Source: Candidatus Micrarchaeota archaeon
Lineage (GTDB): Archaea; Micrarchaeota; Micrarchaeia; Micrarchaeales; CABMGC01
Direction of reading: 5' to 3'
Assembly: GCA_027366155.1 (NCBI GenBank)
Contig: DAHXKV010000002.1
Span: forward strand, 1 to 35,129
DNA length: 35,129 nt
The notes below the pieces were generated by a model, which saw only the letters and a program-made list of their open reading frames with translations, did not search any database and was not told where the DNA came from. Both the position numbers and the translations under genes were made by a program. Each line of letters begins with the position of its first letter. Position 1 is the stretch's first letter. Shown piece by piece: positions 3,444-28,299 of the stretch.

Positions 3444-4559
3444 ATGAACGGGAACAACTGCCAACGCAGAAGCATCACGCCAAACAGGCACGGCGCACTC
3501 ATATTCCTAATACTGTCAGTGCTCGTGCTGCCGCTGGCATACGCGCAGGCGGCCACAGCAATACAGTCCCAGATATGCGGCATAATCTCGATAATAAGCT
3601 CGGTAGTAGGCATACTGGCCATATTCCTCTTCGTAGTCGGCGCCCTCCTCTACTCATTAGCGCACATCTTCCCTGCCGCAGGCAACCTCAAGGGCAGCGC
3701 ACAGGGCTGGGGCATCGGTATGATAATAGGCGGGATAATCGGCATAGTCCTATACATACTCTCCTCATTCATAATCTACAGGCTTGCTTCATTCAGTGGC
3801 AACAGCAGCATACCTGCAATCACCCAGGTTGACTGCAACTCGCAGGCAACGACCACTGCCGCATCGTCTGCCCAACAGCCTCCTCCGGTATCGGTACTCT
3901 CTCAAACAAATTCCACCTCAAAGGCCGCCCGGTCTGGTGCTGGGGGCCTATATGCAATAAACAGCAAGAGCACCTCTGCGCCTCTCCAGTCTGCCAGCAT
4001 GCCACGATGCCAATACTACGGCTCCCAGGTAATAAACGGCGACTTCGGCTACGGAAATTATTCGGGATGGACCGAATCGGGCACTGGCTTCGGCTCCTCT
4101 CCTGTTAACCTGAGCGTTGCGGATTCTGAAGGAAATTACTACCTGGGGAAATGGTCCGGATATTCGGGGGCTTACTTTGCGACTACCTTCTCTAAAACGG
4201 CTTCTGAGTCGCCGGCCAGCCTGACTTCAGAGCCCTTCCTTGTGACTGCCCCATACCTCAACTTCAAGATAATCTCCCCGTACAATCTGGGGATATACCT
4301 GGAGGTTCTATCCTCAAACTCCGTCCTGCTCACCATTCACTACAACACGACAAATGGCCAGGGTTCGTATCCTCCTGGCACGTTTGCCAACGCAAGCATA
4401 TACCTGGGATCACTGATGTGCAGAAATGCAAGCATATCCATAGTCTCACAGTCAGCCGGAAGCCCAGGAGGCAGCCAGTTCATAGCCGTTGGCGACTTCC
4501 ATCTGAGCAACTATTCCGACTCAACGCCGGGCATACTCGAAAACAGCACTGTATCATAG
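3444..4559 (+). CDS. Membrane protein with a VirB2/TrbC-pilin-like N-terminus, S/T/A/P linker and C-terminal carbohydrate-binding-like jelly-roll domain
   Basis: Signal-like segment ending AYA-QA, two hydrophobic helices separated by HIFPAAGNLKGSAQGW, then NGDFGYGNYSGWT...SEPFLVTAPYLNF. TTTATAAT at about 3396. Start position uncertain. Confidence 0.6.
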   Translation: MNGNNCQRRSITPNRHGALIFLILSVLVLPLAYAQAATAIQSQICGIISIISSVVGILAIFLFVVGALLYSLAHIFPAAGNLKGSAQGWGIGMIIGGIIGIVLYILSSFIIYRLASFSGNSSIPAITQVDCNSQATTTAASSAQQPPPVSVLSQTNSTSKAARSGAGGLYAINSKSTSAPLQSASMPRCQYYGSQVINGDFGYGNYSGWTESGTGFGSSPVNLSVADSEGNYYLGKWSGYSGAYFATTFSKTASESPASLTSEPFLVTAPYLNFKIISPYNLGIYLEVLSSNSVLLTIHYNTTNGQGSYPPGTFANASIYLGSLMCRNASISIVSQSAGSPGGSQFIAVGDFHLSNYSDSTPGILENSTVS

Positions 4560-10069: not shown

Positions 10070-10579
10070 ATGGGGATGATGCAGACGATTGGGAGGGAAA
10101 GGGATTCGGCTGGAAGCGTAAGGCGTTCTAACCGATTCACGCCCGAATTAAGGGAATCCTTGTGCGCAGAAGCGAGAGAGATGCTGGATTCTGGGGTACC
10201 AAGGGCCAATGTAGTAAGGCGGCTTGTCGACCAGCACGACATCTCCATCTCCGCAGCATACAGGGCAACTTCTCCAGATGGCTTTTCCAAAAAGCCCATC
10301 ATTCCGAGAAGGGCCATAATACACAGGCATGCCGAACCTGGGCATGCAGAGATGCAGGTTCCTTCTCTGACTAAAGATCAGCAGCGCCTTGTTTCGGAGT
10401 TTAGGATCATGGCTCCAGGCCTGGTTATTGAAACGCTTAGGTTATGCTATGGCAGCGTTGGATCTGCAAGGGCGACTCTCGAAAGGCTTCGCCACGGGGG
10501 CGGAGCCATGAGTATGCAAGTTAAAGACTGGGCGACTGCAGCGTTAAGGGGCTCCGGCGAGCACAGCCCAAAGAGATGA
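10070..10579 (+). CDS. Hypothetical protein with a possible N-terminal helix-turn-helix
   Basis: TTTAAATA at 10030-10037. MLDSGVPRANVVRRL...ISISAAYR resembles an HTH. Confidence 0.5.
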   Translation: MGMMQTIGRERDSAGSVRRSNRFTPELRESLCAEAREMLDSGVPRANVVRRLVDQHDISISAAYRATSPDGFSKKPIIPRRAIIHRHAEPGHAEMQVPSLTKDQQRLVSEFRIMAPGLVIETLRLCYGSVGSARATLERLRHGGGAMSMQVKDWATAALRGSGEHSPKR

Positions 10580-10673
10580 GTGCCAAGGCGCGCAGCCACA
10601 TCCATGCACCATGGCTTATGTCTTGTGCTGTCAACAAGTTTATAATGTTTCCTGGCATTAGATTCATGATGGC

Positions 10674-11930
10674 ATGGCCCACTCACCTAAATCTGCAAGA
10701 AGCGGCAGGGAAAGGAAACCTGCGGATGAAACTCCCGGAAGCATTCCGATGCACAGGCTGGAGGAACACTTCTCTCCGGGGGAAGCGGCAGCAAAGAGAC
10801 GGTCAATGATAGAAAAGCTGACGGGTTCCAGCCTAAAATCGGTAGGCTCGTCAGGACTTGATTATTCGGGCATAGTGAACAAGAACGCCGAAAACGTGAT
10901 AGGCTTCATGCAGATGCCTCTGGGGATTGCAGGTCCGATATCCGTCAGGGGCTCATATACGAATGGCGAGTTTTACGTGCCAATGGCCACTACTGAAGGT
11001 GCGCTGATAGCGAGCATAAACCGCGGCATGAAGGCCATAACCCTTTCCGGAGGGGCATACTCTGTTGTCACAAAAGACCTGATGACAAGGGCTCCACTCT
11101 TCGAGTTCAAGAGCGCCGGAGACGCTGTCGAGTTTGTCGCATGGGCAGAAAGTAACTGGAAAGGCATAACTGCAGCCGCAGAATCAACGACAACGCACGG
11201 CAGGCTGAAGGAGATGCTGCCATTTATCATGGGCAACAACGTCTGGCTCCGCCTCGGTTTCAGCACCGGCGATGCGATGGGCATGAACATGGCGACCATG
11301 GCGAGCGAGGCTGCATGCTCCTTCATAGAAGAAAACTTCCCGAAAGGGCATATGGTAACCGTAAGCGGAAACATGTGCTCCGACAAGAAGGAATCAGGAG
11401 TCAACAGCCTCCTGGGCAGGGGCAAGACTGTCATCTCCGAGGCCCTCATAACCGAAAGCGTGCTCGGCAACGTGCTCAAATCCAACGCCCAGGGCCTCCA
11501 CAACCTCAACATGAAGAAGAACTTCCTAGGCAGCGCCAGGGCCCTGAGTGGCAAGTTCAGCGGCCATTCCGCAAATGCGATTGCGGCAATCTTCGCGGCT
11601 ACGGGCCAGGACATAGCCCAGGTTGTCGAGAGCAGCGGATGCTTCACGCTCACCGAGCCGCGCGGCAGTGACCTTTACATCTCCGTGACACTACCCTCTC
11701 TCGAGATTGGAACTGTCGGAGGTGGATCATCGCTTCCGACACAGCGCGAGGCGCTCTCAATAATGGGCGTAAGCGGCGGAGGAAACCCTGCCGGATCAAA
11801 TGCCTCCAAATTCGCAGAGATAATAAGTGCAGCCGTACTTGCCGGAGAGCTTAACCTCCTTGCAGCGCAGTTCTCCAGGGATCTGGGAAAGGCGCACGGG
11901 AGGCTCGGCAGAAATTCAGGAGCGCGCTGA
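10674..11930 (+). CDS. hmgA: HMG-CoA reductase (class I, NADPH)
   Basis: [56 protein letters not shown]. Confidence 0.96.
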
Positions 11931-11948
11931 GTCAAAAATGTTATTTGT

Positions 11949-11974
11949 AGGGGGCAGCCATGCCGCCCCCCTTT
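11949..11974 (+). terminator. GC-rich hairpin downstream of hmgA (putative terminator)
   Basis: AGGGGGC AGC CAT GCC GCCCCCCT followed by TT. Confidence 0.4.
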
Positions 11975-12010
11975 CTGGGTGTGCCAAGCCACTCTCGGCT
12001 CTAAATAATT

Positions 12011-12090
12011 ACCTATACTAATATATAATCTTTTCTATCTCAGTATCTAATTGTATAGTAAAGTATAAATACTTATACTAAAGTATATGA
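12011..12090. repeat. AT-rich array of four degenerate palindromic 14-mers (consensus TATACTAAAGTATA) at exact 20 bp spacing
   Basis: 12014 TATACTAATATATA; 12034 TCTATCTCAGTATC (weak); 12054 TATAGTAAAGTATA; 12074 TATACTAAAGTATA. Confidence 0.7.
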
Positions 12091-12159
12091 TTGCAGAAAA
12101 GCGTTGCCGACGCTATACAAGACGGCAGGGCAGAACAGCCCCTTTTCTGGGTGGTAGGA

Positions 12160-12660
12160 ATGGAAGGAAAACAAAGAGGTGAGCCGAAGGAGGAAATGTT
12201 ATGGGAGGACCTGGAGAACGCACTGCTGCGGGCAGACAGGAGGAAAGCGGCCTACGGCCTGCGCGTGCACAGGAGCATGAAAAAAAGCATCTTCTTGCTT
12301 CTGGAAGCCGCGGGCATGGAGCCTACGCACAAGCTTGCGGAGGATCTCATTGGCTGCGTGTACCTACGGGCAGGGCTGATTCGGGACAGCAGGTATTGGC
12401 AGGAAGGTTTCGGAATAGACAAGGAGTACGAGACCATCGACTATACTGGGAAGGAAGGCATAAGGCTTTCGCAATCCTCAACAAACGAGGCGGTTGTCTC
12501 CCGCCGCCTCGCGGCCCCTCCTTGCGCCGTGCTCTTGGCAAACTCGGGCCCCATTTCCCCCCACCACACACGCCTCAGTGCCTGCCATATGGCACCCTCA
12601 TTATTTATATATCTGGCAAGTGCAATAATAATCAGTCTAAAGCGGCCAGACGTGAGATAG
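12160..12660 (+). CDS. Hypothetical protein (C-terminal third looks non-coding-like)
   Basis: Plausible charged helical N-terminal ~110 aa. The tail runs through a C-rich stretch and a TTTATATA box. Confidence 0.4.
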   Translation: MEGKQRGEPKEEMLWEDLENALLRADRRKAAYGLRVHRSMKKSIFLLLEAAGMEPTHKLAEDLIGCVYLRAGLIRDSRYWQEGFGIDKEYETIDYTGKEGIRLSQSSTNEAVVSRRLAAPPCAVLLANSGPISPHHTRLSACHMAPSLFIYLASAIIISLKRPDVR

Positions 12661-12675
12661 ACGCGAGATTTTCAA

Positions 12676-13341
12676 ATGACAAAACAAACCACCTCAAGCA
12701 TGCGGGTTGCAGGGGAGCTTACTGAGGCAATCAGGACAATAGACAGACTTATGCGCGAAAACAATGAGCTTCACAAAGAAAACAATGAGCTTCGCAGGCA
12801 TGCCCATGAGGACGCGCTTACCGGCATCGGAAACAAGAGGGCATTCCTTATCGAGTTTGAAGGGGCAGTGCACGCCTACCGCAGGGATTATCCCGGAACT
12901 GTTCCATTCTCGGTTGTGGTAATAGACGCGAACAACCTCAAGATAATCAACGACGCGCTGGGGCATGCGGCAGGCGACGACCTGCTAAGGGCCATAGCAA
13001 AAGGCATAGTCTCCACAACAAGGACCGGAAAAGACTTCTCCGCAAGGATAGGCGGCGACGAATTTGTGGTGCTGATCAAAGGGCCTGCAGACGCGTTCTC
13101 GATAAGGATACATAAGGTACTCGAGGCCATAGCTGCCAAAAACGGGCTCGGATTCCCCGTAAGCATCTCGTTGGGCAGCGTCTCGATAAATGAGATAGAC
13201 ACTGAAGAAAGGCTCTCATCTCCTACTGAAAAAATCATCAAATCAATGCTTGACATTGCGGATTCGAGGATGTACGAACACAAAGCACGCTCGAAGAACG
13301 GCAGAAATCCAGCTGCGATTGCAAGCGCAATCAGGCCGTAA
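12676..13341 (+). CDS. Diguanylate cyclase (coiled coil + GGDEF domain)
   Basis: DALTGIGNKR, VIDANNLKIINDALGHAAGDDLL, ARIGGDEF, SISLG, ADSRMYEHK. Confidence 0.95.
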   Translation: MTKQTTSSMRVAGELTEAIRTIDRLMRENNELHKENNELRRHAHEDALTGIGNKRAFLIEFEGAVHAYRRDYPGTVPFSVVVIDANNLKIINDALGHAAGDDLLRAIAKGIVSTTRTGKDFSARIGGDEFVVLIKGPADAFSIRIHKVLEAIAAKNGLGFPVSISLGSVSINEIDTEERLSSPTEKIIKSMLDIADSRMYEHKARSKNGRNPAAIASAIRP

Positions 13342-13966
13342 GCTTCGTGCTGCCTGCAAGGCAAAAGGCCTCAGCAACTATATCCTCAAAGAAATAATGT
13401 ATCTTCTCCTCCTCCAGTAGGGCAAAGCCGAGCCGTTCCGCAAAGCTGTTCAGCTTTTCCAAGCTGCTTAGCGAGCTTGCAACCAGGATCGCGACCCCTG
13501 TCCCGGAGAGGTGTACCAATGCCTCCTCGAGGAACCTCATGCTGGTCTCTATGCCTTCATCGCCTCCAGACCACATTGCGTCATCAGTCTCGCCGCCTGA
13601 CCTCAGGTAAGGGGCATTGAAAATGATTATGTCATAAACCTCACCTGCCCCCACCCCTGAGAACAGATCTGTCTGGATGAAGCTGAGGCCTGCAGGCAGC
13701 GAGTGGCAGTTGGCCAAGGCGTTTTTCCTTGCAAGTCCGACTGCATCTGGATTCATGTCGGCAAACGTCACCTCTGAAGCCAGTCCGCTGCACGCGGCGA
13801 ATATCCCCAGTATGCCTGTTGCGGTGCCCATGTCGAGAACCTTGAGCTTCTTGGATGCGCCAAGCCTCTTCAGGTACCTCCCCAGCATTCCTGCCGCGAG
13901 CTCAGAGTCTTCCGAAGGGGCGTATACCCCGTCCCTATTCTCGATGCGTATTGCAGAGTATTCCAT
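13331..13966 (-). CDS. HemK2/PrmC-like SAM-dependent protein methyltransferase
   Basis: VYAPSEDSEL, VLDMGTATG, DLFS, IIFNAPYL, WSGGDEG, FFE near the C-terminus. Confidence 0.88.
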   Translation of the reverse strand: MEYSAIRIENRDGVYAPSEDSELAAGMLGRYLKRLGASKKLKVLDMGTATGILGIFAACSGLASEVTFADMNPDAVGLARKNALANCHSLPAGLSFIQTDLFSGVGAGEVYDIIIFNAPYLRSGGETDDAMWSGGDEGIETSMRFLEEALVHLSGTGVAILVASSLSSLEKLNSFAERLGFALLEEEKIHYFFEDIVAEAFCLAGSTKLTA

Positions 13967-14022
13967 CGCGCTCCGATAATCAATTCCCTAGATATATATA
14001 ATGTATTTGCAATATTCCTGGC

Positions 14023-14586
14023 ATGGAAGAGATGCCTGCCTGGATGGAATGCGAAGACATCCTCTCAAGGGTTGAGGCAGAGCTCATGTCAGAAGCCTTG
14101 GAGCTGCTGCGGAAGGAGATGGATGCCGGCAGGATAAAGGTAGAAGGGAATGTTGCGGCATCATCCGAACTGACTGCGCAGGCCGAACGCGACCTTTTCA
14201 TAATGGAGAAGCTACTCGCCGACGAGCAAAACATGCGATACAGGTATGAAAACCTGGTCAATGCGGTTGAAGAGGGCCGCGAGACAAACCCGGAGATAGT
14301 ATCAAGGACGGAAGAGGTAAAGAGGTTCCTGCTTGTTGTCTCGCAGATATCCATAACCGTAAAGTATGCAAAGGTATTCTCCCTCTGGTTTCCCGAAGCC
14401 GGGAAGATGATGAAGGGCGGCAGCGCAAAGGAGATACTGCTTGAAACTGCAAGACAGGACAGTGAGCGCCCTGAGGCCGTATCCTTCATACTGAGCAACA
14501 AGGAGTTCAGAAAAAGCGAGGTGCTCGATGCCAGGGAGATTGAGATGCTTGCCGAGATATATAAAAGGTGCACAAATGGTAACTAA
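14023..14586 (+). CDS. Hypothetical helical protein
   Basis: Acidic, helical ORF after an AT-rich TATA region; overlaps the nfo start, suggesting an operon. Confidence 0.7.
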   Translation: MEEMPAWMECEDILSRVEAELMSEALELLRKEMDAGRIKVEGNVAASSELTAQAERDLFIMEKLLADEQNMRYRYENLVNAVEEGRETNPEIVSRTEEVKRFLLVVSQISITVKYAKVFSLWFPEAGKMMKGGSAKEILLETARQDSERPEAVSFILSNKEFRKSEVLDAREIEMLAEIYKRCTNGN

Positions 14587-15421
14587 CGTGGAAAAGGCAG
14601 GCCAAAGGCTGAGACTCGGATATCATGTCTCGGTAGCCGGAGGCATCTTCAATGCATTCGAGAGGGCTGAGTCATTGGGCTGCAACTCGATGCAGATCTT
14701 TCTGAGCAACCCGCGCGGATGGGATGTAGGCCATCTGCCTCCTGAAGAAATAAGCAGATTTGCGGGGATGCGTGCCAGGCACCCCATAGACCCGGTAGTG
14801 GCGCATATGCCATACCTTCCAAACTTATCCACTTCCGACAGAGCCAAAATGAAAAAGTCAGTAGAATCCCTATCCCGCACCCTCTCACTGGCCGGGTCAC
14901 TCGGGGTAGACTATGTCGTGGCGCATCTGGGAAGCCATGGCGGCGCGGGCACGGAGAAGGGAATCGTGAACGTGATATCTGCAATAAACGCAGTGGAAAT
15001 ACCCGACAATGTGGCACTGCTCCTTGAAAACACTGCCGGAGGAACCAACAGCGTAGGCTCCTCGCTGGAAGAACTCGCGAGGATAAGGGAGGGTGCAGCA
15101 GACCAAAAAAAGATAAGATTCTGCTTAGACACCTGCCACCTCTACGCGGCGGGTTATGACATTGCAGATGCCGCGGTGGCCAACAACATCAAGAAAAAAC
15201 TGGGTCCTGACAGTATAGGCATCATCCATCTCAACGACGCAAAGTTTGAGCTTGACTCAAAGAAAGACCGCCATGCAAACATAGGCCAGGGGTACATAGG
15301 CGAGTCGGGCTTCAGGAAATTCCTTGGAAACGGTTGGGTAAGGTCAATCCCGCTGATACTCGAAACCCCGGAAAACACGCCCGAAGAGATATTGCTTGTC
15401 AGGAGGCTTGCTGGCGGGTAA
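14576..15421 (+). CDS. nfo: Endonuclease IV (AP endonuclease 2)
   Basis: GYHVS, QIF..NPRGW, HMPYLPNL, HLGS, LLENTAG, CLDTCH, HLND, DRHANIG, ILETP. Confidence 0.95.
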   Translation: MVTNVEKAGQRLRLGYHVSVAGGIFNAFERAESLGCNSMQIFLSNPRGWDVGHLPPEEISRFAGMRARHPIDPVVAHMPYLPNLSTSDRAKMKKSVESLSRTLSLAGSLGVDYVVAHLGSHGGAGTEKGIVNVISAINAVEIPDNVALLLENTAGGTNSVGSSLEELARIREGAADQKKIRFCLDTCHLYAAGYDIADAAVANNIKKKLGPDSIGIIHLNDAKFELDSKKDRHANIGQGYIGESGFRKFLGNGWVRSIPLILETPENTPEEILLVRRLAGG

Positions 15422-15446
15422 GCATGCATGGCAATATGCCTGCGGT

Positions 15447-16196
15447 TTATTTTCTTTTGGCACTTTTTACACTGAACCAACGTGACCTCTCAAAAGCGTA
15501 GGATTTTAGCCTGTCTGCAAGCTTGCTCAGGCTAAGCTGGCCGTTTCTGGAAATGATAAGTTCTAACAGCCTTGAGCCTTCCTCATGCAGGACCTCTGCA
15601 TCTGTGCCAAGACTCTTCGCTATTGCATCCACGCGCGAATCGAGGAATCTTTCTGGAACATTTCCGTGCTCAAGCAGTGTTATATAATTCTCGCTTACTC
15701 CCGTGGCGAGTGAAAACCTGTGCCTTGTCATTTTAGGGATCCTCTCGCGCCTCAGTCTGGCAGCAATGCCTACCATGACTGCTTTCCTGTAGTTTTCCGG
15801 GGAATTTTCCATGTCCCTGCATAGAGTTTCTACAAGAAACCCGAAACTTCTTCTGGACGCAGGCTCGGAGATCTTGCCTGTGGTTTCTGCCCGTCCGCCT
15901 ATCCTGAAAAGCTCTTTTGCATCAGTTCTTAGCAGCTCGGCAATTCTTTCAAGGTGGCCTGGATTAGTATCTCCAATGAAAAAGAGCCCCACGCGGATGT
16001 AGTTCATTTCCTTCTCGCCGATTCTTGCCATTGAAGCCAGCTTGTGCGAATCTATCCCCAGAAACTCCATCCTGAACTGGATTTCAGCTGAAATAGCAAG
16101 CTCTGCCGGTCTTCTTGTGAAGTATGTCATGAAGAGTCTCTCCACGGAACTCAGCCTCTCCGCTCCATTATGCTGCATTGCAATGCTCGCTCCCAT
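15447..16196 (-). CDS. Protein with two XRE/Cro-like HTH domains
   Basis: LGIDSHKLASMARI...LERIAELLRTDAKEL and LRRER...RFSLATGVSENYITLLEHG...IAKSLGTDAEVL. TTTAAATA (minus strand) about 30 bp upstream of ATG 16196. Confidence 0.7.
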   Translation of the reverse strand: MGASIAMQHNGAERLSSVERLFMTYFTRRPAELAISAEIQFRMEFLGIDSHKLASMARIGEKEMNYIRVGLFFIGDTNPGHLERIAELLRTDAKELFRIGGRAETTGKISEPASRRSFGFLVETLCRDMENSPENYRKAVMVGIAARLRRERIPKMTRHRFSLATGVSENYITLLEHGNVPERFLDSRVDAIAKSLGTDAEVLHEEGSRLLELIISRNGQLSLSKLADRLKSYAFERSRWFSVKSAKRK

Positions 16197-16269
16197 TCTA
16201 TCAAATACCCCTGATTCTCCCTGATATTTAAATTCATGCGTAAAGTGCGCATCTGACCAGGCGAAACAA

Positions 16270-17868
16270 ATGGAATACAAAAATAAAAAAACAGGATCAA
16301 GAGGAACAGCGTATGTCACATCAAGGCTTGTGCTCAAGTCGCCGTTTTTATCCCTTCCGGCATGGCGCTTCCGCAAGCATTTCCTAAAGAGGAGATTCCG
16401 GTTTGGGAAAGGAATGAACCGACATGCCCTGATTGTCGGCGAGAGTGGCAGTGGCAAGTCCAACGCCTGCCTCTCCATTATTTCCTACCTTCATTCCGAA
16501 GGCTGCAGGATCATGGCCCTGGATCCCAATGGCGATTATCTTTCCATCGCGGACATTATTGGTGCAGACGTGTATGACGCGTCAAGGAGGCCTATAAACA
16601 TAATGGAGACATGGGCCGAAGGCCGGCAGGCCGAAGACGAGATATCCTTGATGCTCTCCAAGCGGCTGAGGTTGGGCTATATCCAATCCTCGCTACTCAG
16701 GCGGTGCATAGGGTATTGCTACTGGGCAGGACGCATGCGTGGAAGAAAGCCCACGTTTGACGACCTCATAGCAACGGCGAATGCATTCCGGAAAAAAGCA
16801 CCGCAAGGCGAGTCCAGGATCCTTGATACTATATTGGGAAGGCTCTACCTGATCTCGTCTGGAAGCCAAGCCTGGGCAGTCGACTTCCAGAAAGCTGTCT
16901 CAAGAAACAGCATCTTCGTGCTATCCGAACTGCGGTCTGAGGAGTCGCAGTCGGTATACATGGAAGGGATATTGCGCAAGCTCTATGCCGCAATGCTCTC
17001 CGGCAGGCTGCACAGGCCCACCTGCCTCGTCATAGACGAAGCGAGGAAGGTTGCAGGCAGTCCCGCACTGGGAAGGCTTTTTGCAGAAGGCAGGAAGTAC
17101 GGGCTCGGAATAATAACAGTCTCACAGAGGGCAAGCAATCTCGACGAGAACGTACTAAGCAACTCCTCTCTGCTTCTCGCATTCTACCAGCGCGAGCCGC
17201 GCGAGATGGAATACATCTCGAGATACATCTCCGGAGGCAGCGAGATGGGCAGGATTGCAGAGGTGCGCAGGAGAATAAGGAACCTGCGAAAAGGCGAGGC
17301 TGTAGCCCTGGACTCCCAAGCCGGAGAGCCGTTCACGCTAATGTTCTCCAGGTTCAACGGAAACGCGACGAGCTTGGAGCATCTTATAGGAAAGGTTTCA
17401 CTGTCAGGTTCCACCGAGCCATCCATATACAATCATGCATTAAGGGCAGGTTTCAGTCATGCAGAAACCAAAGCCAGACTGGAATGCCTGCTTGCGGAGG
17501 GAAGAATCGGCAAGCATGAAATAAGATCCGGGAGGCTGAGAGGCACATGGTACGTCTCATACTTCAGAAACAGCCCGGAGCACGATCTTTTCGTGCGCCT
17601 AATAAGCAAAAAACTCACGCTCCTCGGGATAGAGAATGAGGTAGGAAACGGAAGCCGTGGGCCTGATGTGATAGCCAACATCTCCGGAAAGAGCGTAGCC
17701 ATCGAGTATGAGACGGGAAGCAAGAACCCCGAAGACACGATAAGAATGATAGAATCGAGGGTGCGGAGCTATGGTACTGTCATAGTGGTTGCGCCAGAAG
17801 CCGTTCTTGGCAGGTACAAATCCATAAATGGGGTTTCATGCATCTCAGACGCTGAGGCCTTTGAGTAA
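16270..17868 (+). CDS. HerA/FtsK-superfamily (DUF87-like) ATPase with C-terminal PD-(D/E)xK-like domain
   Basis: HALIVGESGSGKS (Walker A), LDPNGDY, VIDEA (Walker B), EGRKYG...VSQR. C-terminal H...GPDVIA...VAIEYETG. Confidence 0.85.
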   Translation: MEYKNKKTGSRGTAYVTSRLVLKSPFLSLPAWRFRKHFLKRRFRFGKGMNRHALIVGESGSGKSNACLSIISYLHSEGCRIMALDPNGDYLSIADIIGADVYDASRRPINIMETWAEGRQAEDEISLMLSKRLRLGYIQSSLLRRCIGYCYWAGRMRGRKPTFDDLIATANAFRKKAPQGESRILDTILGRLYLISSGSQAWAVDFQKAVSRNSIFVLSELRSEESQSVYMEGILRKLYAAMLSGRLHRPTCLVIDEARKVAGSPALGRLFAEGRKYGLGIITVSQRASNLDENVLSNSSLLLAFYQREPREMEYISRYISGGSEMGRIAEVRRRIRNLRKGEAVALDSQAGEPFTLMFSRFNGNATSLEHLIGKVSLSGSTEPSIYNHALRAGFSHAETKARLECLLAEGRIGKHEIRSGRLRGTWYVSYFRNSPEHDLFVRLISKKLTLLGIENEVGNGSRGPDVIANISGKSVAIEYETGSKNPEDTIRMIESRVRSYGTVIVVAPEAVLGRYKSINGVSCISDAEAFE

Positions 17869-26982: not shown

Positions 26983-28299
26983 ATGCTCATCTTCAGGATA
27001 AACTACTTCCTGCTCCCAACAGAGATATGGATAGTTGTCACCACTACAATAGTGATATGGATAACGCGCATATATCTAAATTCATTCCTCGCGCTAAGGA
27101 AGGGCAAAGTGAAAGAGCGCAAGCCTTCAACCGCCGTGCTCCACGGCTCGGAGCCCCTTGTAAGCATAATACTCCCCACGTACAACGAGTCCAGGGTGAT
27201 AGGCAGGCTCCTCTCGGCAGTCACCAAAATAGACTACAGGAACTTCGAGGTTATAGTCGCTGACGACTCTACCGATGGAAAGACAATGGAGGTCCTCGGC
27301 CAATGGCAGGAAAAAGGAATCAGGGTAATACACAGGGACTCGAGGAAGGGCTTCAAGGCAGGCGCGCTGAACAACGCAATGCTCCACATCTCACCCAAAT
27401 CCGAATACATCCTCATATTCGATGCCGACTACGTGCCCCAAAAGGAGATCATCTGGCAGATGCTTGGAGATTTCTCCTCAAAAGAGATAGCTGCGGTACA
27501 GGGCTACACCAAGCACACGCTCAACGCCTCCAAAAACATCTGGACGAAGGCTGTCTCGATAGGCTTCTCGGCATATTCGCTGGTAGACATACCAATACGC
27601 AAGAAGCTAAATGGCTTCATCCCTCTCTTCGGGAGCGTCACCATGGTCTCTCGGCAGGCACTTTCAGAGGTTAACGGCTTCTCCGAGGACTCTATAACAG
27701 AGGATTACGAGCTCGCCTGCAAGCTGGAGGCATGCGGCTACAGTATCATGTTCGATGAAGGCATAGCCGTACCTGCAGAGTGCCCTGACTCGTTCAGGGT
27801 ATTGCTAAAACAGCAGATGCGCTGGGCAGAGGGAATAACACGCGACACTAAGAACCACCTGCGCAGGCTGCTCTCCAGCAAAAAACTCAACCTGATGAAA
27901 AAATTTGACTATGTTTATTACGGATTCAGCTCTCTCAACGGAATAATAGGTACGGCGGCATACTCGCTGACCGCATTTGTCTTCATGGTCCAGCACCACC
28001 TGATACTGCATTCACTAGGGGTAGACAGCACATTCGTCACGGCTCTCGGCCCCTATGGCAACTTCCTGCTCAACGTTGCGCCAGGATATGTTGCGTTGGG
28101 CCTGATATCCATGGTAATTGTGGGTCTGTATCGCGAAGGCAGGCTGCACGATGTGCTCTGGGTTGCATACTTTTATCTTGTAACGCTCCTGCTGGCGCCG
28201 TTTATAGCGATAAGCGGTATACGCGGCCTCCTTCTGAAGAAGGGTTCCTGGTCGCGCACAAAGAAAACCGGGGAAGTCATTCGCGAAGTGCACCCTTAG
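26983..28299 (+). CDS. Processive GT2 glycosyltransferase (CesA/Csl-like)
   Basis: PTYNE, DDS, FKAGALN, DAD, TED and QQMRW motifs; C-terminal TM helices. Confidence 0.93.
   Translation: MLIFRINYFLLPTEIWIVVTTTIVIWITRIYLNSFLALRKGKVKERKPSTAVLHGSEPLVSIILPTYNESRVIGRLLSAVTKIDYRNFEVIVADDSTDGKTMEVLGQWQEKGIRVIHRDSRKGFKAGALNNAMLHISPKSEYILIFDADYVPQKEIIWQMLGDFSSKEIAAVQGYTKHTLNASKNIWTKAVSIGFSAYSLVDIPIRKKLNGFIPLFGSVTMVSRQALSEVNGFSEDSITEDYELACKLEACGYSIMFDEGIAVPAECPDSFRVLLKQQMRWAEGITRDTKNHLRRLLSSKKLNLMKKFDYVYYGFSSLNGIIGTAAYSLTAFVFMVQHHLILHSLGVDSTFVTALGPYGNFLLNVAPGYVALGLISMVIVGLYREGRLHDVLWVAYFYLVTLLLAPFIAISGIRGLLLKKGSWSRTKKTGEVIREVHP

Follow-up and report, generated by a model that had tools for sequence, protein, structure and literature searches.

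The present analysis concerns a question raised by a single archaeal gene: does a GGDEF protein encoded by a member of the Micrarchaeota belong to the archaeon itself, and is it equipped to synthesize cyclic di-GMP (c-di-GMP)? Archaeal use of c-di-GMP was an open question until 2026. The gene occupies positions 12676..13341 of a 35,129-nucleotide (nt) stretch of Candidatus Micrarchaeota DNA (hereafter the window; GenBank assembly GCA_027366155.1, contig DAHXKV010000002.1), which makes up the entire contig C52 of an assembly of 778 kb in 61 contigs, with a completeness of 78.19% and a contamination of 0.39%. Based upon its domain, fold, conserved residues and genomic setting, it is probably a native Micrarchaeota gene for a minimal, coiled-coil-dimerised diguanylate cyclase with predicted activity, and it has probably been inherited vertically within its family and kept by purifying selection. 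The gene and the parts of its product are as follows:

12676..13341, + strand: gene for the coiled-coil plus GGDEF protein, an open reading frame (ORF) with an ATG start, 221 amino acids, stop codon included
12688..12807, + strand: N-terminal helix, residues 5-44 of the AlphaFold2 model, presumed to be a parallel dimerising zipper (the "stalk") that runs into the DxLTG turn
12802..13299, + strand: GGDEF catalytic domain, the Pfam match placed on the DNA
13021..13035, + strand: variant inhibitory (I) site R116-T-G-K-D120, of the form RxxxD rather than RxxD, with D120 five residues ahead of the GG
13051..13065, + strand: active-site motif G126-G-D-E-F130, read from the translation and aligned with the hairpin motif of solved cyclases and of relatives

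Domain, fold and active site of the GGDEF protein

An earlier note, made from the DNA letters and their translations, had described an intact-looking GGDEF cyclase that has a coiled coil but lacks a sensor domain, and each of these elements is borne out by Pfam, TIGR00254, AlphaFold2 and Foldseek. The protein matches the GGDEF profile PF00990 with 91.2 bits (E 7.6e-26, cut-off 23.8) over residues 43-208, corresponding to profile positions 1-160 of 161, and scores 93.6 bits against TIGR00254 (cut-off 37.4), which places it within that family. The AlphaFold2 model, built with 19 Micrarchaeota sequences, has a pLDDT of 90.4 and a pTM of 0.80 and shows one helix (residues 5-44) with the GGDEF fold after it. 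With E <= 0.001, Foldseek matched this model to at least 100 PDB chains, of which all those listed are GGDEF proteins, with WspR (3bre), a GCN4-WspR fusion (3i5c), SiaD (7e6g), the coiled coil plus GGDEF protein DgcB (6ttr) and phytochrome-linked cyclases at the top. By sequence, 27 solved GGDEF proteins are matched at E <= 1e-10. Neither Pfam nor the model reveals any further N-terminal domain beyond the helix, and the model, being made up of helix and domain, contains no signal peptide-like or membrane segment.

All of the motifs previously read from the DNA are present in the translation and in the alignments (residue numbers derive from a manual count on the 221-residue translation of 12676..13341). 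In addition to the active-site motif, these include D46-A-L-T-G50, V82-I-D84-A-N-N87 and the stretch K89...D101 (KIINDALGHAAGD, residues 89-101). The metal-binding D84, the guanine-reading N92 and D101, and the phosphate-binding K203 are all in place, and we take these to be the equivalents of PleD D327, N335, D344 and K442. Among 19 relatives, T49, D84, N92, G100, R116, D120, R124, G126, D128, E129, G167, A195 and K203 are invariant, while D101 is nearly so. A broader set of 60 Micrarchaeota sequences, which includes the 20 from the synteny loci discussed below plus 40 others (with one identical pair and four long multi-domain proteins among them), retains D84 in 60/60, N92 in 59/60, D101 in 56/60 and K203 in 59/60. 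The motif column reads GGDEF in 50 of them and otherwise GADEF (4), GGDEI (2), GGDEM, GGDEY, GGEEF or TGDEF (one each).

Many degenerate GGDEF proteins keep the fold as regulators, and the window protein could likewise be a dead enzyme serving as a scaffold or a nucleotide-binding regulator. The drifting motifs of its Micrarchaeota relatives (GADEF, GGDEI, GGDEM, GGDEY and TGDEF) speak for such a role, as do the catalysis-independent phenotypes of archaeal GGDEF proteins described in section 2.13 of PMC13725321 (Sidorov et al., Mol Microbiol, September 2026) and the regulator of Ca. Micrarchaeum acidiphilum described as REC plus an inactivated GGDEF domain in a passage of PMC5847659 (Galperin et al. 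2018), which also casts doubt upon archaeal GGDEFs. However, as far as that passage describes it, the Ca. Micrarchaeum protein combines a receiver with a dead GGDEF domain, whereas the window protein has no receiver and its motif is intact. Furthermore, GGDEF, D84, N92, D101, R124 and K203 are all preserved in the window protein and their columns are kept in 56-60 of the 60 relatives, while six within-genus pairs of related GGDEF genes, none of which contains the window gene, exhibit dN/dS ratios of 0.09-0.33 at dS values of 0.39-0.77. These related genes are under purifying selection. A dead enzyme is therefore quite unlikely.

Altered hairpins do occur among the relatives. The protein of the nearest syntenic relative (L041 of genome G007) reads CGDRGDEF, and four others (L028, L029, L168 and L171) read R(R/K)G(R/K/N)GADEF. 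Insertions beside the motif are also reported by Sidorov et al. for some GGDEF proteins from metagenome-assembled genomes (MAGs), and one sequence given there, RYGGDKGDEF, resembles that of G007.

With respect to dimerization, manual inspection of the N-terminal helix places L25, L32 and L39 at heptad d positions and I22, N29 and N36 at a positions, and L..EN..L is the Micrarchaeota family consensus for this helix in the family alignment. Buried asparagines within a zipper, as in GCN4, favor parallel dimers. The sequence alignment with the GCN4-WspR fusion 3i5c starts at residue 22, within the zipper, and in both WspR 3bre and this fusion (E 7.6e-13 and 1.8e-12) a parallel coiled coil leads straight into the DxLTG turn and the GGDEF domain, as is presumed for the window protein. 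WspR differs in possessing a receiver domain and a canonical RxxD, whereas a sensor and the canonical spacing are both absent from the window protein, and identity is 24-26%. The same two-part layout and a similar size are found in SiaD of Pseudomonas aeruginosa (7e6g) and DgcB of Caulobacter (6ttr), which are bacterial coiled-coil plus GGDEF proteins with no classical sensor. The TM-score between the window protein and SiaD 7e6g is 0.74, and the NCBIfam SiaD model (NF038266) matches residues 19-204 with 78.7 bits, far below the equivalog cut-off of 290 that would make it a SiaD-type protein; SiaC (PF09345), the activator that SiaD needs, has no match in the 78%-complete genome. A two-copy homodimer prediction with the family alignment scored 0.40 against a mark of 0.42, with controls at 0.00, 0.15 and 0.00, a result that counts neither for nor against dimerization. 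Presumably, two copies would pair via a parallel leucine zipper of about residues 15-44, and this pairing would join two GGDEF half-sites, each with one GTP, for the formation of c-di-GMP.

The I site was correctly recorded in the earlier note as an RTGKD off the canonical spacing. R116 is located one residue too far upstream for an RxxD, while D120 is canonical, and the offset appears as a one-residue gap relative to 3icl in the HMMER alignment and as an insertion in the family alignment. Because the extra residue falls within the product-inhibition site, feedback may be weakened, and a constitutive, feedback-free cyclase, as the earlier note had suggested, is conceivable. The R and D of the I site are retained by 58/60 relatives, and three proteins (L137, L142 and L146) share the RxxxD form, so the site of the window protein may still work. 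The exact RxxD-x5-GG spacing is found in 42/60 Micrarchaeota relatives versus 16/80 of the nearest bacterial matches. A conserved family I site, which is more canonical than that of the bacterial matches, would fit binding of the family's own product, c-di-GMP.

Archaeal residence and inheritance of the gene

The contig is archaeal and the GGDEF gene is native to it. In agreement with the earlier note, which had assumed a genuine archaeal genome, the contig encodes pelota (205 bits, above cut-off), an archaeal HemK relative, endonuclease IV, KorAB and a class-I HMG-CoA reductase, and its pelota is closest, among named relatives, to those labeled Candidatus Micrarchaeota, Micrarchaeia and Micrarchaeaceae plus a few labeled Marsarchaeota, at 49-58% identity, as expected of a Micrarchaeota (DPANN) genome. 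The sequencing runs that hold contig DNA are mine-drainage metagenomes. In composition, the GGDEF gene is indistinguishable from its surroundings, having a GC content of 0.509 versus 0.503 +/- 0.029 for the 476 long ORFs of the genome, a third-position GC content of 0.577 versus 0.587 +/- 0.061 for the same ORFs, a codon score at the 48th percentile of the genome and an ordinary 4-mer distance. Two runs, which may be the source of the assembly, yield Logan contigs of 11.3 and 12.0 kb that span positions 10500-15500 unbroken with 3 and 5 differences. A 300-nt contig from a third run of the same study (X4) bridges 13123-13422 and hence the overlap of the GGDEF gene with its downstream neighbor, while a run from another study (X3) holds 12981-13131, part of the GGDEF gene, unchanged.

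The gene is also embedded in a conserved genomic context. Matches to the protein query are found in 21/61 genomes of the order, including its own (20/60 without the unpublished genome G050), at 30-44% identity. When the ORFs within approximately 6 kb of either side of 20 matched loci were clustered, with the window serving as the 21st locus, a block emerged in the order korB, korA, HMG-CoA reductase, small ORF, GGDEF, (rhodanese-like gene), HemK2, orf14023, nfo, HerA/CedD-like, aldo-keto reductase and K+ channel. The block with a GGDEF gene is found in 10/21 loci, window included, representing 9 genomes of 6 genera (G000, G007, G003 on two contigs, G005, G014, G034, G021, G018 and G036). A different conserved GGDEF context is common to G038, G048 and G052, which belong to another family. 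The features of the block in the window to which the text refers are as follows:

10674..11930, + strand: class-I (NADPH) HMG-CoA reductase; PF00368 408.4 bits, TIGR00533 427.9 bits, just below the cut-off of 441.8; syntenic in relatives
12091..12660, + strand: small conserved ORF between the reductase and GGDEF genes, with homologues in the same place in G007, G036 and G002
12604..12611, + strand: TATA-box-like element TTTATATA, 72 nt before the GGDEF ATG and part of the string TTATATATCTGG; presumed to be the gene's own promoter
13331..13966, - strand: HemK2/MTQ2-type methyltransferase, convergent with the GGDEF gene; TIGR00537 89.5 bits (cut-off 87), PF05175 48.7 bits
19216..20070, + strand: K+ channel with a TrkA_N (RCK) domain, within the conserved block; Ion_trans_2 57.6 bits, TrkA_N 57.9 bits

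The earlier note had placed the GGDEF gene between hmgA and a prmC-like gene and overlapping the 3' end of the latter. The overlap is confirmed, as the GGDEF and HemK2 genes share 11 nt at their 3' ends (13331-13341), and a convergent GGDEF/HemK2 pair is likewise present in G007, G014, G021, G018 and G036; the reductase, however, is not the immediate neighbor, being separated from the GGDEF gene by the small ORF.

Could the gene nonetheless be foreign, having entered through bacterial contamination, chimeric assembly or very recent horizontal transfer? GGDEF proteins are overwhelmingly bacterial and the best 80 loci obtained from named genomes with a single-protein query (own genome excluded) are all from bacteria, at 28-42% identity. 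In addition, the G007 bin holds bacterial-looking PAS-GGDEF and EAL genes on contigs of 2-3 kb. The 80 bacterial loci encode much longer proteins, in stop-to-stop frames of 248-1189 codons, most exceeding 400. Among 5.8 billion proteins, the closest is a 98% copy on a 1.5-kb contig and no other exceeds 38% identity. A foreign origin is already contradicted by the genome-like composition of the gene, its 35-kb contig with archaeal markers, the two assemblies that span it, the short contigs that cover its 3' junction, the GGDEF-bearing block in 9 genomes of 6 genera, and the clustering of the small Micrarchaeota proteins on a tree, and it is extremely unlikely. The chimeric bacterial insert considered in the earlier note is thus not what was found, and it is the composition, the spanning assemblies and the conserved block, together with the low dN/dS of related GGDEF pairs, that identify the gene as native.

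A profile search of 1.84 billion representatives returned 601,057 matches at E <= 0.001, and the top 150 are almost all long proteins with at least two matched GGDEF stretches each, so that the search carries no information on the Micrarchaeota clade. On a quick maximum-likelihood tree of 141 domains and 158 columns, the label Micrarchaeota or bacteria changes 4 times versus a shuffled mean of 46. The small Micrarchaeota proteins, all 57 of them, share one side of the tree with two bacterial rows and the PAS-GGDEF protein of G007, a grouping that lacks support, and three other long Micrarchaeota proteins (L132-L134) are placed among the bacteria. In an approximately unbiased (AU) test of a 61-row subsample under a simpler model (LG+G4), the tree holding 29 small Micrarchaeota proteins as a clade was not rejected (p-AU 0.931) and was 50 log-likelihood units above the free quick search, for a group that was named after the first tree, with the four left-out rows set apart by length and architecture. 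The phylogeny proposed in the earlier note therefore speaks against a recent transfer, whereas a single origin of the small Micrarchaeota family is compatible with the sequence data, but not proven.

Distribution of cyclic dinucleotide domains and the case against an active cyclase

The own genome encodes one GGDEF protein, and the same is true of many related genomes. Within the order, GGDEF is encoded by 78/248 genomes at E <= 1e-5 (77 above cut-off), which includes 26/86 high-quality genomes and 27/60 genera, and the genes are nearly all single-copy with frames of 186-311 codons. Within the phylum sample, it is encoded by 149/401 genomes, 73/188 high-quality genomes and 71/155 genera. These counts include G050, without which they become 77/247 for the order and 148/400 for the phylum. 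GGDEF proteins of other Micrarchaeota families are often longer and occur in up to four copies. The supposition of the earlier note that GGDEF proteins are rare in archaea consequently does not hold for this lineage.

Archaeal GGDEF proteins have also entered the literature. Sidorov et al. (PMC13725321) describe GGDEF proteins in archaeal isolates and 20 further proteins chosen from MAGs, mainly of DPANN, several of which are GGDEF-only, a type the article calls rare in bacteria. Section 2.13 of this article reports signs of cyclase activity for 3/7 proteins in a riboswitch assay. Archaeal c-di-GMP synthesis can no longer be called unrecognised, whereas the earlier note had spoken of unrecognised archaeal c-di-GMP signaling, and the window gene is a further example of an archaeal short GGDEF gene rather than the first. 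The short GGDEF proteins described in the article are like the window protein in being encoded on an archaeal contig and in having an N-terminus too short for a domain, an intact GG(D/E)EF with the signature residues, and no Ser of the Hypr type. The main text of the article contains no occurrence of the string "micrarchae", and its 20 proteins are listed in Figures S6 and S7 of the supplement. The article terms the archaeal occurrence of GGDEF occasional or sporadic, in contrast to the 78/248 and 149/401 genomes counted here, and it regards the receptors and phosphodiesterases, as well as the distribution and origin, as questions still to be answered. What the present locus adds to its main text is threefold: GGDEF genes are frequent among Micrarchaeota, the gene lies in a conserved block, and no canonical partner domain is evident in the order. 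The only articles to emerge from a literature search that combined Micrarchaeota or Micrarchaeum with diguanylate cyclase, GGDEF or cyclic di-GMP were PMC5847659 and a groundwater survey (PMC9938205), in which diguanylate cyclase genes are counted in ultra-small organisms and Micrarchaeota are not named for them.

Several observations weigh against a native, vertically inherited and active cyclase, beginning with its missing partners. The own genome, which is 778 kb and merely 78% complete, has no match for EAL, PilZ, HD_5 or MshEN; the earlier note had already seen no EAL, HD-GYP or PilZ gene in the window, where the domain searches are blank as well, and it had proposed the genome-wide search. 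Neither a canonical phosphodiesterase nor a canonical receptor domain that would complete a c-di-GMP module was thus found in the genome, the generic phosphoesterase candidates found being only two HD and two DHH proteins, one of the latter with 322 residues. Among the 61 genomes of the order, PilZ and HD_5 are each found in none, and EAL in one, on a 2.1-kb contig of G007, whose bin is probably contaminated. A second messenger without a reader is hard to explain. Furthermore, no enzyme assay was identified for the window protein or any member of the Micrarchaeota clade, and section 2.13 of PMC13725321 describes none of its seven MAG proteins (0/7) as consistent in all three assays. The protein itself has a non-canonical I-site spacing, and close relatives have altered active sites (GADEF in 4/60, CGDRGDEF in G007), which suggests that activity is not uniform across the family. 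With regard to vertical inheritance, GGDEF proteins of the same genus are 31-35% identical to the window protein versus 62-71% for the adjacent reductase, and G003 and G005 have the GGDEF gene on the opposite side of HemK2. Due to this low identity and change of side, orthology within the slot is not certain. We read the low identity as vertical descent with fast evolution, with replacement within the slot as the alternative that these sequences would also accommodate.

The slot between the small ORF and HemK2 is filled differently in G002, a genome of the same genus, in which an 83-residue ORF and a PIN protein (PF01850, 64 bits) are located at 4105-4751 of L124. This pair looks like a VapBC-type system. 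Both the shift in G003 and G005 and the VapBC-like pair of G002 indicate that the slot turns over.

Elsewhere in the phylum, partner domains are distributed unevenly. In a sample of 251 genomes, EAL is found in one, within a GGDEF-EAL frame of 868 codons, and PilZ in one, whereas HD_5 (the HD-GYP type) is found in 38, 29 of which are above cut-off. All 29 are outside the order of the window, 19 of them are also GGDEF-positive, and neither of the two large families in the order of the window has an HD_5 match (0/47 and 0/64 genomes). Micrarchaeota with larger genomes may possess a more complete c-di-GMP module, and it may have been reduced to the cyclase alone in the order of the window. The G007 bin (1.4 Mb, 310 contigs) stands apart from this pattern, with a PAS-GGDEF gene on the 3.5-kb contig C105 (L038) and its EAL gene on the 2.1-kb contig C185 (L042). 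Both look like bacterial contaminants of the bin and are best left out of Micrarchaeota gene counts.

Micrarchaeota live on a host archaeon, and the same lack of partners would be in keeping with an active domain that makes something else, such as cyclic GMP-AMP (cGAMP, as in Hypr enzymes), cyclic di-AMP (c-di-AMP) or linear pppGpG, or with a cyclic dinucleotide that is no internal messenger but is transferred to the host or detected by it. In neither the own genome nor the 61 genomes of the order was a canonical reader or phosphodiesterase for c-di-GMP recognized. DAC, the c-di-AMP cyclase, has no match in the own genome or in any of the 5 genomes of the genus, and it is rarer than GGDEF elsewhere (22/201 genomes of the order, 6/100 of the family), which leaves the GGDEF protein as the sole recognisable cyclic-dinucleotide cyclase of the genome. 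One of the 60 relatives also carries a Ser in the column of D101, as cGAMP-forming Hypr GGDEFs characteristically do. However, the window protein has Asp101 at this guanine-reading position, along with N92, which argues for the use of GTP rather than a mixed product; according to section 2.12 of PMC13725321, a Hypr GGDEF is marked by a GD pair whose Asp (the PleD D344 position) is replaced with Ser, and by this mark the window protein is not one. The conserved I site of the family fits c-di-GMP binding and the model offers no signal peptide-like or membrane segment for export. Another product or destination is accordingly unlikely, and synthesis of c-di-GMP by a resident cyclase is the reading we retain. 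As for RNA receptors, no c-di-GMP-II riboswitch was found in the own genome, whereas the c-di-GMP-I search was uninformative because its positive control was silent in every genome.

Regulation, neighboring genes and a candidate reader

Since the protein has no sensor domain, its output would have to be set at the promoter or through the stalk. The element TTTATATA was read on the basis of the archaeal TATA-box consensus; its strict pattern is present in 7/21 regions upstream of the GGDEF genes versus 0.019 expected per 150 nt from a genome-wide count, and the longer string TTATATATCTGG is also located upstream of the GGDEF gene in G034, G036, G003 and G005. Cyclase output could thus depend on how strongly the gene is transcribed from a presumed TATA-box promoter of its own, or alternatively, on a partner acting upon the stalk.

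An obvious place to look for a partner is the adjacent ORF at 12091..12660. Neither Pfam nor PADLOC has a match for this ORF, whose C-terminal tail is not conserved and whose listed start probably lies ahead of the true one. Its family (L124 3680-4105 in G002, plus G036 and G007) shares the stretch ...EYE..Y..K(D/E)GIRL(F/S)QSST..., and a second small family (c10) in the same position in G003, G005, G034 and G018 may be a distant homologue. An obligatory partnership with the cyclase is ruled out, as G002 keeps the small ORF with no GGDEF gene in the slot; the small ORF is therefore not tied to the cyclase. An anti-phage role for the GGDEF protein was likewise dropped, as PADLOC has no match for it or its two unknown neighbors.

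A rhodanese-like gene of approximately 105 residues with a CxHGNxS loop lies between GGDEF and HemK2 in many relatives. Its Pfam Rhodanese score is 19.6 bits, below the cut-off. It adjoins the GGDEF gene even in G031, in which the remainder of the block is missing, while in the own genome it is found on another contig (C21, approximately 4226-4531). Examples are listed below:

L029 4880-5200, L030 5390-5707, L033 5268-5594, L022 4283-4666 and others: rhodanese-like gene

Further downstream in the window, the gene for a HerA/CedD/VirB4-like ATPase at 16270-17868 (+) is conserved in the block, and a 343-residue ORF without a family match at 15447-16478 (-) overlaps its start by approximately 200 nt. 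Start codons around 15447-17868 probably need revising. A processive GT2 glycosyltransferase at 26983-28299, which is PgaC/IcaA- and cellulose synthase-like (114 and 94 bits, under the equivalog cut-offs), is a rare accessory exopolysaccharide gene. It was ruled out as a conserved effector, being encoded by only 2/61 genomes, its own and G024, the latter having no GGDEF match.

The K+ channel of the block, 5.9 kb downstream of the GGDEF gene in the window, is a different matter. A homologue directly follows the GGDEF gene in G025 (L023) with a gap of 45 nt, and in four g52 genomes of another family (L147, L149, L151 and L154), one is divergent from the GGDEF gene at a distance of approximately 200 nt. 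This adjacency could be either a synteny remnant or a functional link. Being in the block of the cyclase and beside a cyclase gene in two separate lineages, the channel is the best lead for a receptor, albeit a weak and speculative one as a candidate effector. It is conceivable, if improbable, that the enzyme is an orphan cyclase whose c-di-GMP is the sole cyclic dinucleotide of these cells and is read by a non-canonical receptor, for which the RCK/TrkA_N channel would be the best candidate, or handed to the host. Potassium is controlled by c-di-AMP elsewhere, and c-di-GMP would in that case take over this role.

Whichever reader is involved, the locus is a clean case of long residence, with a block that extends across six genera and relatives under purifying selection, and more than a third of the sampled genomes of the phylum carry a GGDEF gene. 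If the enzyme is active, a cyclase that stands alone in its order, where canonical phosphodiesterase and receptor domains were not found, implies that an as yet unrecognized reader must exist. The protein is small and sensorless, and hence easy to express and assay. As HD-GYP-type domains are found elsewhere in the phylum, often together with GGDEF, a cross-phylum comparison could show what has replaced them in the order of the window.

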